A DNA stretch of 32,000 nucleotides from Candidatus Saccharimonadota bacterium (GTDB taxonomy: Bacteria; Patescibacteriota; Saccharimonadia; Saccharimonadales; Saccharimonadaceae). Position 1 is the stretch's first letter. Each line of letters starts with the position of its first letter. Of this stretch, positions 28,341-32,000 are shown one piece after another. The position numbers and the translations under genes were made by a program. The DNA lies in NCBI GenBank assembly GCA_002421785.1, contig DIRZ01000001.1, forward strand, positions 30,001 to 62,000, in the 5' to 3' direction. The notes below the pieces were generated by a model, which searched no databases, was not told where the DNA came from, and saw only the letters and a list, made by a program, of their open reading frames with translations.

Positions 28341-28393
28341 CGGGTAAGTAAATCATTTCTGGTTAGCGAGCATTGTATTTTTATTTGTAATAT

Positions 28394-28401
28394 TGTATAA
28401 T
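28394..28401 (+). promoter_or_regulatory. -10 element TGTATAAT for the 28457 cassette, flanked by GTAAT/ATTAC inverted repeat
   Basis: ttGTAATatTGTATAATagtcATTACaa read directly. Confidence 0.45.
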
Positions 28402-28456
28402 AGTCATTACAAAGCACAACATCCCGTTGCGCTCGTACCACCAAGGAGGTTCCCTA

Positions 28457-28957
28457 GTGAATCGTTTCGACAAGCCACTCAGCGCAGCGAGCGCCATCCT
28501 GATCATCATCGCGGCCGTCGGCATGCCGGTGAACCTGGTGGCGAGCATCGCAACCGGTGCCCACAGCAACCCGGTCAGCTTCTGGTTCGCCCTACTGGGC
28601 GTCGTCGGGGCCATTATGCTGTTCGTCAGTGACGGGGTGTACCGCAAGTGGCACACGCACACCAGCATCGTCACCGGCATCTGGACAGAGCGCCGGCCCA
28701 AGGAGCACAAGCTCGGTCGGTCCTTCCAGAGCCTGACCGGCGCGTACCCCGAGGTCGCTATCATGCGGCTAAAGTCGGGCGGCACCTACAACCTGGGGCC
28801 TCTCGACGAGTTCGAGCCGCAGGCAACCCAAGTGCGAGTCGGCGACACAGTCATCGTCGATCGCGCCTGGGGCGCGGCAAACGGACACTGGCACACCCGG
28901 CTCCTGGGTGTCGTCCACGCCGACAAGCGGCAGTCCGCCAAGAGGCCTGGCGCGTAG
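28457..28957 (+). CDS. Two-TM membrane protein with a C-terminal beta-rich domain (reminiscent of DUF3592-type proteins), GC3-saturated
   Basis: AAGGAGG, a 7-nt spacer, then GTG 28457. TM helices 'AILIIIAAVGMPVNLVASI' and 'FWFALLGVVGAIMLFV'. The C-terminal domain contains '..VRVGDTVIVDR..'. Confidence 0.7.
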   Translation: MNRFDKPLSAASAILIIIAAVGMPVNLVASIATGAHSNPVSFWFALLGVVGAIMLFVSDGVYRKWHTHTSIVTGIWTERRPKEHKLGRSFQSLTGAYPEVAIMRLKSGGTYNLGPLDEFEPQATQVRVGDTVIVDRAWGAANGHWHTRLLGVVHADKRQSAKRPGA

Positions 28958-28968
28958 ACTCCACACCC

Positions 28969-29017
28969 GCGGTATATCGGGGGATTAATTCCCCCCGATA
29001 TACCGCTTTTTTATTTT
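28969..29017 (+). terminator. Strong rho-independent terminator
   Basis: 15-bp perfect stem GCGGTATATCGGGGG/CCCCCGATATACCGC followed by TTTTTTATTTT. Confidence 0.85.
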
Positions 29018-29030
29018 CATATACCATCCA

Positions 29031-29081
29031 AATAAAAAGGCCCGGAGGCCCCAGTGCGTAAACGCACCAGGAGCTCCGGGC
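29031..29081 (-). terminator. Rho-independent terminator of the vWA/AAA+ operon
   Basis: Minus strand GCCCGGAG...CTCCGGGC with an inner GTGCG/CGCAC stem, followed by CTTTTTATTT. Confidence 0.7.
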
Positions 29082-29089
29082 TTGTCGTG

Positions 29090-30664
29090 TCAGTACCTCC
29101 AGTCCATGTAGGATTCCCCTGGGTAGAGGCCCTCGGTCGCACCCTTCACATTCGAACCATCGGCGTCTGCCGTCAATTCGTAGTGAGTGGTGCTCAGGCT
29201 CTTCAGCCCTTTATTACCGGGGTAGCCGACAATCACCGTGTGAAGTGTCACATCTTCGCCAATGGCGTCGTATACTTCTTCACGAGTGATCGTGTCATCA
29301 CCGTCGGTAATGAGCAGAATCTCGGCTGCCTGCCCCCGACGCGCGCGACTGCGCACATCTGAAGCCGCTTCCTTGATGGCGGTGTAAATGATTGTGCCAC
29401 CGCCCAGATCGTTGCTCTGGTTGAACAGCTCCTTGATGAGCGAGCGACGCTCTGCAGGAGTGGTAGCAGCAGTCAAGCGGCCCACCGCAACGGCAAACTG
29501 GCGGTACAAGTACTGCGAGTCGTCGTCCAGGTGAGCGCCCATCACTACCGAAGCAAGGGCAATCGCCAGGCAGATGGGCGTTCCGTCCATACTACGCGAC
29601 ACATCGACCACCAGCTCCAGCAGTTGAGCCTGCTGTTCGTCGGTGACCTCGATCTGCTCAGTCCATTCCTGGACCTTGGGCTCTTCGAATTCCCGCCACA
29701 CTTTCCGCTTCTGCAGCGTAGGCAGGCCGGGAACTTCCTCGGCGAATACCCGCCGGCGCAAACGCCCAGTCGCAAAGCGATGGCCAAGCACGTGGCGAGG
29801 CAACGCCATGTCGCGACGCGACATCTGACTCAGCTCACCGGTTCGGCGAACCGGAAGGGTATCGGGGTCATCAGTCGGGTAGGGCACAAAGATGCGACCG
29901 TTGGGCGCCTTCGGACCAGGCATCTCCACCTCCACCATTTTCTTGACCGTCTCGATCGTCACCTTACGGCGAACGATAGGAACGGTCTTAGTGGGAGTGT
30001 GCTTGCCCTTGCCACGAAGGTTCGTGATATTGAACACGGGGATGTCCAGTTTGTTGATCTGGTGAATCATCCGCGCCACCACGTCAGGGTCGACAGTCAA
30101 GTTACCTTGACCGCCCAGGCCGCGACCAGCACTCGTTAGCTTCAGGACCGCCCTCAGTTGGGCGTCGTTCAGCTTCGGCTTGCCGGTCTTTGGGGTCACA
30201 TCTTCATGCGTCTGCATGTCGATGATCTTACCCTGGCGATTAGTCGAATCTTCCCAGGTGGTTTCGGCGACCTTGCGGTCATCGAATGATCCCACCTGAG
30301 TGCCATCTTCCTGGAGCACGACGTACCGACCGTTGTTGTCCGGCTCGGGAGTAACATCCTGACCGGTTTCCCGGTCGATGATGCGTCCTTCCTGGCCCGT
30401 CTGCTCCTGCCACTGCTTGTGGGCACCAGCAAGCGTGTCGTTTTCGGCAACCTGCTTGCCCTTGCTGTTCTGCACTTCGTAGCGCGGCTGACTGGGCTGC
30501 GGCATGCTCTTGGGCGCGTTGGGAGTCGGCGGCGGAGTGGGACGCTCCTGAGTGGAACGCCACAGCAGCCGCCACCACTGCTTGATGCGGTCGAGAACGG
30601 AAAGCCTTGTCGGGTCGCTCGGACCCGACAAGGCACCGCCACGACCGACCGTGTCGTCGGTCAC
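29090..30664 (-). CDS. vWA (MIDAS) domain protein with a Pro-rich linker and tandem N-terminal repeats
   Basis: GTG start 7 nt after the AAA+ stop. MIDAS elements 'VVDVSRSMDG' (DxSxS), 'GGGT' and 'LLITDGDD'. Confidence 0.85.
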   Translation of the reverse strand: MTDDTVGRGGALSGPSDPTRLSVLDRIKQWWRLLWRSTQERPTPPPTPNAPKSMPQPSQPRYEVQNSKGKQVAENDTLAGAHKQWQEQTGQEGRIIDRETGQDVTPEPDNNGRYVVLQEDGTQVGSFDDRKVAETTWEDSTNRQGKIIDMQTHEDVTPKTGKPKLNDAQLRAVLKLTSAGRGLGGQGNLTVDPDVVARMIHQINKLDIPVFNITNLRGKGKHTPTKTVPIVRRKVTIETVKKMVEVEMPGPKAPNGRIFVPYPTDDPDTLPVRRTGELSQMSRRDMALPRHVLGHRFATGRLRRRVFAEEVPGLPTLQKRKVWREFEEPKVQEWTEQIEVTDEQQAQLLELVVDVSRSMDGTPICLAIALASVVMGAHLDDDSQYLYRQFAVAVGRLTAATTPAERRSLIKELFNQSNDLGGGTIIYTAIKEAASDVRSRARRGQAAEILLITDGDDTITREEVYDAIGEDVTLHTVIVGYPGNKGLKSLSTTHYELTADADGSNVKGATEGLYPGESYMDWRY

Positions 30665-30671
30665 GTATTAC

Positions 30672-31946
30672 TCACCACCCCTTCAGGAGATCGAAACCGA
30701 TGACCGGTGTCGAAAGCTTCTTGATGTCCAGTTCGATCTGGCTGACCGCCAGGTCCAGGGCCATGTGCCTAGCGCCACGGAGGGCAGCCTTGATCTGCTG
30801 GGCCGTCAGAGACGACGCAGCGACCATCGTGCCGCCCACCATCAGCTGGGCACTGGTCGTCTGGCTGCGCTCGGCAGTCAGTTGAGCGACCATGTCAGCC
30901 AGCTTGCCGAGCTCCTCCAGAAGGTGAAGCCGGCGACCGGTCATGCCATCCAGCAAATCACTGCAAACTTGCGCCCACAGCACTTCGTCGCCGGACTCGT
31001 CACCGATGGTGAGGAGTCCGTACATCAGCGCCTTCTGATCGACAACATGCACCTCGTTCCGCCCGTGAAGGACGGCCGAAGCGCGGCTGAAGTCGAACAG
31101 CTTGCCGAGAGTACGCGGCGTCACCTCGGGTACGCCGAGCTCCATGTCAAGGGGCTCTTCGGCGATATCCGCGTTCTTCGCGTGCCAGGCGGCACGAGCG
31201 GCGACCAAACGGCGACGCTGAAACTCGCTGACAAGCAGGACGTGCAGCAGGCGCATACCCGGGCTCACCACGATGCCGCCGTCAGCCTCGGACGCCATGA
31301 CGCGGTCCGAAAGCTGCCTGAGGCCGTCGTAGGGAAGTACGGGCAGAGACAAGCGCTTACCCGAATAGTCGAGGTAAGTACCACTGGCACGCAGGCTGTC
31401 ACCCAGGCCATCAATACCGCGCAGGTATGCCTTGCACATGAAGCGGTCAAGAACCGCCTGTAGAGCTGGCGTCATACGCATGTAGTTGCTGGTCGCGATG
31501 GCGGTGTGGAGCGGAGCCGGGACGATACCCATGCCCATGGTCTTGAACTCACGCTCATTGAGCACGTTGTTCACGCCACGCAGCACGTAGTCCGACCCGT
31601 CCATGAACTCGTCGAGAAAGGCGAAAACCGCCTCTACGATGCCACCCTCGAGGTTGTACACCTCGCGGCCGGACTTCATGAGCTCGTCGGCGATGATGTT
31701 GCCGAACATTTCCTCACGAGTTGTCTCCTTGGTGATCTGGAGCGAGAACGTGAGGGCACTCTCGTCGAACATCCCGAAGATGCTCGTGCTCATCAGGCTC
31801 TTGGCACGGCCGGGGCCGCTGAACCAGAACACGTGCTCACGAGCGAGCAGGGCGAACAGAACCTGAGTGAGGATCTGTTCGTTGCTGGGGAAGTTCTTCC
31901 CCAGCACGTAGAAGTTCTCACGCAGTTGCCCAGCGTATGTCATCAT
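30672..31946 (-). CDS. MoxR/RavA-like AAA+ ATPase
   Basis: 'LFALLAREHVFWFSGPGRAKSL' (MoxR-type Walker A with AK), Walker B 'FAFLDEF', sensor-1 'IATSNY', 'VLDRF'. AAGGAGAA SD before ATG 31946. Confidence 0.85.
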   Translation of the reverse strand: MMTYAGQLRENFYVLGKNFPSNEQILTQVLFALLAREHVFWFSGPGRAKSLMSTSIFGMFDESALTFSLQITKETTREEMFGNIIADELMKSGREVYNLEGGIVEAVFAFLDEFMDGSDYVLRGVNNVLNEREFKTMGMGIVPAPLHTAIATSNYMRMTPALQAVLDRFMCKAYLRGIDGLGDSLRASGTYLDYSGKRLSLPVLPYDGLRQLSDRVMASEADGGIVVSPGMRLLHVLLVSEFQRRRLVAARAAWHAKNADIAEEPLDMELGVPEVTPRTLGKLFDFSRASAVLHGRNEVHVVDQKALMYGLLTIGDESGDEVLWAQVCSDLLDGMTGRRLHLLEELGKLADMVAQLTAERSQTTSAQLMVGGTMVAASSLTAQQIKAALRGARHMALDLAVSQIELDIKKLSTPVIGFDLLKGW

Positions 31947-32000
31947 GCCGTTCTCCTTGGATTGGAATTGGTACCGAATTGGGACTGTACGAAGTGCGCC

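Follow-up and report, generated by a model that had tools for sequence, protein, structure and literature searches.

The stretch of DNA analyzed here (the window) comprises 32,000 nucleotides of contig DIRZ01000001.1 (assembly GCA_002421785.1, positions 30,001–62,000) from a Candidatus Saccharimonadota bacterium. Close to its end, two adjacent genes on the minus strand encode a MoxR-type AAA+ ATPase and a protein with a von Willebrand factor A (vWA) domain that carries a metal ion-dependent adhesion site (MIDAS). They constitute a new, lineage-specific MoxR–vWA pair that resembles RavA–ViaA of Escherichia coli, is devoid of the LARA domain, and contains a distinctive tandem-repeat adaptor region. 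Window positions are used throughout (Table 1); L001 denotes the extended contig, including the DNA beyond position 32000, and the other L numbers denote further loci that we read.

Both open reading frames are intact. The vWA gene, which starts with GTG, follows the stop codon of the ATPase gene after 7 nucleotides, and 54 nucleotides are left 5′ of the ATPase gene before the window ends. The ATPase contains the core residues of MoxR AAA+ proteins, with the motifs SGPGRAKS (Walker A), FLDEF (Walker B), and LDRF; K49 (Walker A), E113 (Walker B), N154 (sensor-1, in TSN), and R168 (LDRF) are invariant in 19 homologs. In the partner, the MIDAS is defined by the motifs DVSRS, GGGT, and TDGDD, and its residues D354, S356, S358, T424, and D454 are invariant in 22 homologs. 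A previous reading of the window from its letters (the first-pass annotation) had described an intact operon with this spacing and these motifs; the open reading frames and every motif that it quoted are confirmed, and the motifs are conserved in the homologs. At the level of sequence, this shows a pair that is intact, closely coupled, and, as judged by its conserved residues, catalytically competent, with regulatory signals of its own.

These signals are a promoter-like site in the 116-nucleotide spacer between the ATPase gene and the preceding pyrH-like gene, a Shine–Dalgarno sequence, and an intrinsic-terminator-like hairpin that follows the vWA gene. Because it has its own promoter-like site, Shine–Dalgarno sequence, and terminator, the ATPase–vWA pair is a self-contained bicistronic operon. 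The terminator points at a second, stronger hairpin on the opposite strand, located 3′ of a convergent gene for a protein with two transmembrane segments (the two-transmembrane gene). This facing arrangement was already noted in the first-pass annotation, and both hairpins are found where it placed them.

The same annotation had allowed for a partner gene hidden by the cut at the window end. The contig extension does not reveal one: the first gene past the cut encodes a 247-residue AA_kinase-family protein of the UMP-kinase type (pyrH), with a GC content of 0.50 and a GC content at third codon positions (GC3) of 0.50. This pyrH-like gene is a housekeeping gene and neither a partner nor a client of the pair. 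The ATPase gene sits on Saccharimonadales metagenome contigs of about 200 kb.

Table 1. Features of the MoxR–vWA locus (window positions unless L001 is given)
Feature	Position	Strand	Basis or remark
RavA-like MoxR AAA+ ATPase, 424 residues	30672–31946	−	AAA+ core, lid, C-terminal helical bundle
ViaA-like vWA partner, 524 residues	29090–30664	−	Alignment, AlphaFold2 model, hhalign
vWA domain with complete MIDAS, residues ~347–500	29165–29626	−	Pfam VWA_CoxE, VWA, VWA_2
Two tandem repeats of ~50 residues, residues ~59–160	30185–30490	−	Family alignments
Promoter-like site TTGTAA-17-TATAAT	L001 9894–9922, ~25–53 nucleotides past position 32000		Promoter scan; in the pyrH–ATPase spacer
Shine–Dalgarno sequence AAGGAG	31953–31958	−	Sequence read; 6 nucleotides ahead of the ATPase ATG
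Intrinsic-terminator-like hairpin, 6 pairs and T-run	29052–29037	−	3′ of the vWA gene; closes the bicistronic operon
Terminator, 15-bp stem (10 G–C pairs) and T-run	28969–29006	+	3′ of the two-transmembrane gene
Convergent two-transmembrane protein, 166 residues; not part of the module	28457–28957	+	GTG start, two hydrophobic segments

Likeness of the pair to RavA–ViaA

The AlphaFold2 model of the ATPase (predicted local distance difference test (pLDDT) 80, predicted template modeling score 0.81) displays a RavA-type fold, in which the AAA+ core is followed by a lid and a helical bundle. When this model is compared with the Protein Data Bank (PDB) by Foldseek, the top matches are RavA structures (3nbx, 6q7l, and 4upb) over about 365 columns, with a template modeling score of 0.55 for 3nbx and 6q7l. 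A phmmer search of the PDB with the ATPase sequence returns RavA matches only, and the hhalign comparison of the ATPase profile with E. coli RavA yields a probability of 98.3% over 305 columns. The motifs of the two proteins align as well, and among the solved MoxR proteins, RavA is the closest to the ATPase. At the C-terminal end of the ATPase, L420, G423, and W424 are invariant in a segment predicted to be disordered; this L..GW tail may be a docking motif. Two intermediate relatives of the ATPase, P0068 (706 residues) and P0071 (737 residues), have an extra N-terminal portion of about 290–330 residues ahead of the MoxR module and look like fusion variants.

The vWA protein has no signal peptide and no transmembrane segment. 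From the N- to the C-terminus, it is composed of a Trp-rich amphipathic helix (residues 23–36), a Pro-rich linker, the two tandem repeats, a middle region rich in β-strands, the vWA domain with its MIDAS, and a variable tail of about 25 residues, which is found in all 22 family members. The N-terminal helix and the linker are conserved in the family alignment, and the β-strands of the middle region are unusually long in the AlphaFold2 model (pLDDT 80). The best Pfam model for the vWA domain is VWA_CoxE (35.8 bits, residues 347–469); no Pfam family is found in the N-terminal 340 residues, for which a scan at E ≤ 10 gave sub-threshold noise only. Foldseek matches of the model are vWA/MIDAS domains, including those of Midasin and Rea1, and its whole-model matches in the PDB are confined to the vWA domain.

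Profile alignment of the partner to E. coli ViaA by hhalign has a probability of 93.4% (E = 2.5e-7) and pairs residues 230–473 with ViaA residues 228–432, going beyond the vWA domain by about 90 residues on its N-terminal side. The placement of this domain is also alike in the two proteins, at residues 347–500 of 524 here and at residues 320–457 of 483 in ViaA. The resemblance extends to the organization of the system. As in the pair described here, the E. coli genes are bicistronic, with the ATPase gene first and the vWA gene adjacent or overlapping. Both ATPases combine an AAA+ core, a lid, and a helical bundle with a P-loop of the form G..G.AKS (GPPGIAKS in RavA, GPGRAKS here), and in both partners, a vWA domain with a full MIDAS makes up the C-terminal part, behind an N-terminal region, no third component being needed.

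The tandem repeats follow the consensus RY.V.D..G.QV.S.D...A..W...T...G.IID..TG.DVTP, and each unit is modeled as β-β-α-β. A local profile search finds the unit only in vWA partners among the loci fetched, with two copies in the close relatives and one in L017. Matches to phrog_18789, a phage family of about 60 residues and unknown function, were obtained for 20 of 36 repeat units. The repeat profile has no match in Pfam, and nothing in the PDB matches it below E = 0.5; a search of a database of 5.8 billion proteins returned 11 candidates and no match, an uninformative outcome, as the word index is probably unsuited to a query of 50 residues. A weak early match to AbpA was not upheld with the repeat profile. 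The tandem repeats form an adaptor module specific to the lineage and are the signature of the family.

Distribution, inheritance, and base composition

A genome scan locates the family in Candidatus Saccharibacteria/Saccharimonadales. The close ATPase family comprises about 26 clusters at 90% identity, which are 49–98% identical to the query and are followed by a gap down to 30–35%; about 10 full-length clusters at 50% identity are present among 1.84 billion representatives. Weaker relatives of the ATPase (30–41% identity) occur in other Saccharimonadia, Microgenomates, and Parcubacteria, and more distant ones in Ignavibacteria and Calditrichota. The vWA protein has 24 homologs, whose distribution matches that of the ATPase. 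In the distant relatives from Calditrichota, Ignavibacteria, and Microgenomates, the vWA domain is found at about residues 140–290 and is followed by 170–250 residues; the Saccharimonadales subfamily therefore differs from them in architecture. We found no description of a patescibacterial MoxR–vWA pair in the literature searched.

In every related locus that we read, the MoxR and vWA genes lie side by side and point in the same direction. They are embedded in the gene order sortase–HAD–Exo_endo_phos–(pyrH)–MoxR–vWA–variable slot–GT4–GT4–α/β-hydrolase–SmpB (GT4, glycosyltransferase family 4), which is shared by L001, L016, L030, and L031 and, in part, by L010 and L014. Between species, the MoxR and vWA proteins are 47–69% identical, and the syntenic flanks of the same genome pairs are 45–86% identical. 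No genome pair compared shows an anomalously high MoxR/vWA similarity, which would be the sign of a recent transfer. A four-taxon distance comparison, made by hand from pairwise identities, reveals branch-length differences and no resolvable conflict. Because the divergence of the pair falls within the range of its flanks and the synteny is shared, the pair is, as far as these comparisons can tell, inherited vertically at a fixed chromosomal position in Saccharimonadales.

This conclusion runs against the first-pass annotation, which had called the module apparently acquired. In its fullest form, that explanation would have the pair and the two-transmembrane gene arrive together as a recent island from a GC-rich donor, for example a phage, a plasmid, or the actinobacterial host. 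The base composition is indeed atypical in an island-like manner. The GC content is 0.58–0.63 from position 28000 to the window end (about 0.60 overall), compared with about 0.52 in the backbone, which bears out the GC-richer DNA reported in that annotation. The excess resides mainly at third codon positions, with GC3 values of 0.79 for the ATPase gene, 0.71 for the vWA gene, and 0.85 for the two-transmembrane gene, compared with 0.57 ± 0.08 for 26 backbone genes. The edges of the block are sharp, with pyrH just past the ATPase start codon and a GT4 gene on the other side. A viral source could also be seen in the match of the repeat unit to a phage mini-protein family and in the best viral fold matches to the vWA model, which are phage vWFA proteins of similar size, together with a vWA protein of the Acidianus two-tailed virus (250–380 columns).

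The viral proteins are, however, far from close relatives. Bacillus phage 0305phi8-36 (gp66/gp63) and Moorella phage MTATph1 do have, like our locus, a MoxR-like ATPase and a vWA protein with no propeller partner, and the vWA domain of the Moorella phage protein is C-terminal as well (residues 328–465 of 493); gp63 has no Pfam match. Yet the identity to the phage ATPases is only 25–32% over the AAA+ core, the vWA protein has no tblastn match, and the fold matches to the phage and archaeal-virus vWA proteins have high root-mean-square deviations, that is, differing domain orientations. Moreover, unlike the viral pairs, the pair described here is chromosomal and syntenic. Searches of phage and plasmid collections by tblastn gave no place at which 80% of the ATPase is covered; the matches listed are 23–32% identical over 35–76% of it. 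For the vWA protein, neither collection contains a match.

Nor is any of the usual marks of an island found, be it absence or another position in relatives, hallmarks of mobility, or close relatives on mobile elements. No tRNA gene, integrase, or meaningful flanking repeat lies beside the pair, and no actinobacterial relatives appeared in the homolog searches. The same locus is present in genomes that share only 47–69% protein identity, and the two-transmembrane gene alone behaves as a variable insert. The synteny largely refutes a recent acquisition, which we regard as very improbable.

The composition itself points in the same direction. We compared GC3 across the 11 loci of the close family (at least 49% identity), where it amounts to 0.76–0.90 for MoxR and 0.63–0.80 for vWA across a backbone GC3 of 0.44–0.69; in 8 of these loci, MoxR has the highest GC3 among its neighbors (z-scores up to 10). 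The excess is thus also present in orthologs from genomes with a backbone GC3 as low as 0.44, which a single recent transfer cannot explain. A single ancient transfer cannot explain it either, since synonymous sites should have equilibrated long ago at protein identities of 50–60%. These orthologs share the GC-rich composition as a conserved feature, which does not mark a recent acquisition. The first-pass annotation had considered that the pair might turn out to be both conserved and compositionally normal in relatives; it is conserved in related genomes, but its composition is abnormal there too. In distant relatives from low-GC genomes (L017, L021, and L023), little or no GC3 excess is observed.

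A compositional island can therefore be a conserved trait of vertically inherited genes, and GC deviation alone is a poor ground for calling acquisition in these genomes. The persistence of such high GC3 values in MoxR across backbones of very different composition is a small but real puzzle regarding base composition in reduced genomes. It may stem from biased gene conversion in a region prone to recombination, from repeated exchange among members of the clade, or from selection acting on properties of the mRNA. Codon bias linked to expression is an unlikely cause, as the ATP synthase genes of the window have a GC3 of 0.44–0.62. The minus-strand gene run to which this value refers (about 11510–18489(−), most genes at 0.44–0.62) was used as a compositional control, and we take it for an F-type ATP synthase operon, judging by the N-termini of the translations and by how large the two big subunits are.

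The two-transmembrane gene encodes two hydrophobic segments, in line with the first-pass annotation, and has a strong Shine–Dalgarno sequence (AAGGAGG, before the GTG start). Its product has no family match and no homolog in any related locus read. Between vWA and the first GT4 gene, the slot contains the two-transmembrane gene here (28341–29089), an Ion_trans_2 gene resembling a K+ channel in L030 (9957–10364), and an α/β-hydrolase gene in L031 (10080–10952), which suggests that the slot 3′ of vWA is a local hotspot of gene turnover. As a partner of the pair, the two-transmembrane gene is rejected, since it has no counterpart in related loci and the occupant of the slot differs from genome to genome.

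Other GC3-rich genes nearby encode small lineage-specific membrane proteins. Two of the GC3-rich genes lie beside smpB, at a local GC peak of 0.60, and encode a 116-residue acidic protein (23691–24041(+)) and a 79-residue protein with a single transmembrane segment (24210–24449(+)). About 2.9–3.9 kb past the window end, beyond pyrH, two further genes encode two-transmembrane proteins of 130 and 140 residues (L001 8080–8472(−) and 8634–9056(−)). These two genes have a GC3 of 0.82–0.87, are mutual paralogs (z = 18.6), and match part of a 651-residue protein of L016; they form a second GC-rich patch, which the pyrH gene of normal GC content separates from the MoxR–vWA block. A paralogous relationship between them and the two-transmembrane gene of the window was rejected (z = 0.8–3.6). 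The genome seems to hold a class of small, lineage-specific, GC3-rich genes scattered among housekeeping genes of ordinary GC content. Two perfect palindromes (L001 8031–8068 and window 28969–29006), one with 18-nucleotide arms and a 2-nucleotide spacer and the other with a 15-bp stem, flank GC-rich genes as strong terminator-like hairpins.

Candidate partners, clients, and mode of action

The ternary systems of MoxR, vWA, and β-propeller proteins were described by Kaur et al. 2020 (Kaur, Burroughs, Iyer & Aravind; PMC7159879), the source of the family name of PF20030. The subsystem is defined by a C-terminal β-propeller on the vWA protein, a third component with tetratricopeptide repeats (TPR) and a propeller, and a GXXXTAKS P-loop; the third component consists of a variable N-terminus, a transmembrane segment, TPR repeats, and a β-propeller (PMC7159879). 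The first-pass annotation had placed the pair near such conflict systems with a third, variable partner. PF20030 ("bpMoxR") is the best Pfam match of our ATPase (79 bits, followed by AAA_5 with 32 bits), and the P-loop is of the AKS variant, as in the ternary systems. Both features, however, also fit RavA. E. coli RavA (L034 3098–4594(−)) scores 191 bits on PF20030, and gp66 of Bacillus phage 0305phi8-36 scores 158 bits. Because E. coli RavA scores higher than our ATPase and has the P-loop GPPGIAKS, PF20030 and the AKS P-loop do not discriminate ternary systems from RavA. A match to "bpMoxR" is thus not evidence of a β-propeller conflict system, and automated annotation based on the name will over-call such systems.

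The architecture differs from that of the ternary systems as well. The short tail after the vWA domain leaves no room for a C-terminal β-propeller, and the AlphaFold2 model contains none. In the loci that we read from Saccharimonadales and other Patescibacteria, no third gene, with TPR/propeller regions or otherwise, is conserved next to the pair; in a search for a third partner by Pfam scan of the up- and downstream neighbors in relatives (flotillin, histidine kinase, amidohydrolase, UvrC, ribonucleotide reductase (RNR), and proteins without a family), nothing recurs. PADLOC-DB gave no match at E ≤ 0.1 for the ATPase, the vWA protein, or the two-transmembrane protein. The assignment to a conflict system with a third partner is accordingly not sustained.

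A reduced version of such a system, Esr-type and with its partner acting in trans, would be a threat-sensing device, in which the pair serves as a thresholding switch in conflicts with other bacteria or with phages. Its partner could be an RCC1-propeller/ricin-lectin protein 8 kb away or a PEGA/propeller membrane protein beside the sortase gene. The former (19016–21223(−), 735 residues) has a pilin-like hydrophobic N-terminus followed by an RCC1/WD40-like β-propeller and a ricin-B lectin domain; the latter, a transmembrane protein with a PEGA domain and a faint propeller match, is encoded at a syntenic upstream position in both L001 and L031. In L017 and L033, the pair is bordered by histidine kinases, the vWA proteins of the most distant relatives offer space for a further C-terminal domain, and the Esr pathways of the actinobacterial hosts show that MoxR–vWA pairs can act in signaling. 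Housekeeping genes of mixed orientation lie, however, between the pair and each of the candidate propeller proteins, and given the missing third gene, the missing propeller, and the empty PADLOC search, we consider a reduced system of this kind, with either candidate as its partner, unlikely. The 735-residue protein could instead serve the epibiont at its surface, in sugar binding or in attachment. One distant relative, on the TARA marine contig L012 (35% identity), does have a large gene directly upstream: its 838-residue product (5471–7987(+)) has no Pfam match, the gene ends 13 nucleotides before MoxR, and the protein is a candidate for the third component of that more canonical system.

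Dedicated chaperones for a single enzyme offer another model. Here the pair would insert a cofactor into, or activate, one enzyme, for example RNR, in the manner of NorQ–NorD, CoxD–CoxE, CbbQ–CbbO, or CobS–CobT. Such a role would agree with VWA_CoxE being the best vWA model and with the nucleotide-related neighbors of the pair, namely pyrH (L001, L016, L030, and L014), cmk (L010), and class I RNR (L017); MoxR-like/vWA pairs of the same architecture in jumbo phages also lie among RecQ and RNR genes. To our knowledge, however, neither pyrH nor cmk depends on the assembly of a metal cofactor. None of the candidate clients is found beside the pair throughout, and in other lineages the pair neighbors Mur ligases, flotillin, metK, or two-component systems, and the ATPase is nearer to RavA than to the other solved MoxR proteins. 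Unlike in the four systems named above, genes for NorCB, carbon monoxide dehydrogenase, Rubisco, or cobaltochelatase are absent: none occurs in the window, the adjoining 10 kb, or the related loci. The observation in the first-pass annotation that the window has no obvious client enzyme therefore holds, also for the DNA beyond the window, and the client pathway for which it had left a place upstream is not there, a housekeeping gene occupying that position. We judge a dedicated single-enzyme chaperone to be improbable, somewhat more so than the reduced conflict system.

The explanation that we favor, and consider probable, is that the bicistronic operon of a RavA-like ATPase and a ViaA-like partner, which belongs to a small, vertically inherited Saccharimonadales subfamily, encodes a client-remodeling chaperone. 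The general MoxR–vWA model is taken from PMC7159879 and the mechanism of RavA–ViaA from PMC9489729. By analogy, the ATPase would form a hexamer, the vWA protein would attach to it by its N-terminal part, and the MIDAS would hold an acidic residue of the client protein. ATP hydrolysis would then remodel the client and thereby mature or regulate a protein complex encoded elsewhere in the genome. In E. coli, the N-terminal domain of ViaA is sufficient for RavA binding, LARA is dispensable for the RavA–ViaA interaction, and both proteins are found at the inner membrane (PMC9489729); RavA–ViaA is also described as interacting with LdcI, fumarate reductase, or Nuo and with lipids of the inner membrane (PMC9489729, PMC3893208, PMC10585395). 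The client of our pair may likewise be membrane-proximal or part of the envelope, as suggested by the Trp-rich amphipathic helix, the GT4, sortase, and Mur neighbors, and the RavA–ViaA precedent; this is the weakest step of the model. A chaperone pair kept at one locus across the clade would imply a client important enough to retain.

Several observations weigh against the chaperone model or set the pair apart from RavA–ViaA. With 424 residues, the ATPase is 74 residues shorter than RavA (498 residues), and a Pfam scan finds neither LARA (PF20265) nor the RavA C-terminal domain (RavA_C, PF12592) in it, whereas the E. coli RavA control scores 135 bits for LARA and 83 bits for RavA_C. On the NCBIfam RavA equivalog NF010054, the ATPase reaches 58.4 bits against a cutoff of 681, and the pair is not an ortholog of RavA–ViaA. 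ViaA has an N-terminal domain (NTV) that is described as mainly α-helical, while the corresponding region of our vWA protein is modeled as repeats and long β-strands; the order of an N-terminal region and a C-terminal vWA domain fits ViaA, but no homology to the helical NTV is demonstrable. The pair also resides in a Saccharibacterium and not, as RavA–ViaA, in E. coli, and no LdcI, Frd, or Nuo gene is present in the approximately 42 kb read, so that the client must differ or be encoded elsewhere. No client is encoded next to the pair, and the immediate neighbors vary by lineage (pyrH, cmk, flotillin, histidine kinases, Mur ligases, RNR, and metK). Membrane association is argued only from the predicted amphipathic helix and from analogy, and the persistent GC3 excess lies outside the scope of the chaperone model.

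The genomes of Saccharibacteria measure about 1 Mb, and these bacteria are dependent on actinobacterial hosts. The pair might be conceived as a remodeling machine specific to them, in which the repeat adaptor would recruit an envelope or surface complex for epibiotic life, such as a pilus- or sortase-linked attachment apparatus, or else a sensing pathway that mirrors the MoxR–vWA-based Esr system of the hosts. The conserved GC3 excess would then stem from recurrent recombination or biased gene conversion at a locus exposed to conflict. We give this more elaborate proposal little credence, about as little as the single-enzyme chaperone, and retain the client-remodeling chaperone as the preferred explanation.

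The surroundings of the pair in relatives contain a few further genes. In the more distant Saccharimonadia loci L018 (8118–9635) and L020 (8095–9612), a 505-residue flotillin/SPFH protein is encoded directly upstream of the pair, and a MacB/FtsX-type ABC transporter recurs downstream in L014, L018, and L020. Locus L010 contains, near the pair, a Band_7 protein (5612–6559) and a second, unrelated vWA protein of 561 residues (2173–3858), in which SBP_bac_11 is combined with VWA. Within the window itself, at 2870–3292(+), a 140-residue protein that starts MKRSSGFTIVELAVVIVVLAIL has an N-terminus resembling that of type IV pilins.

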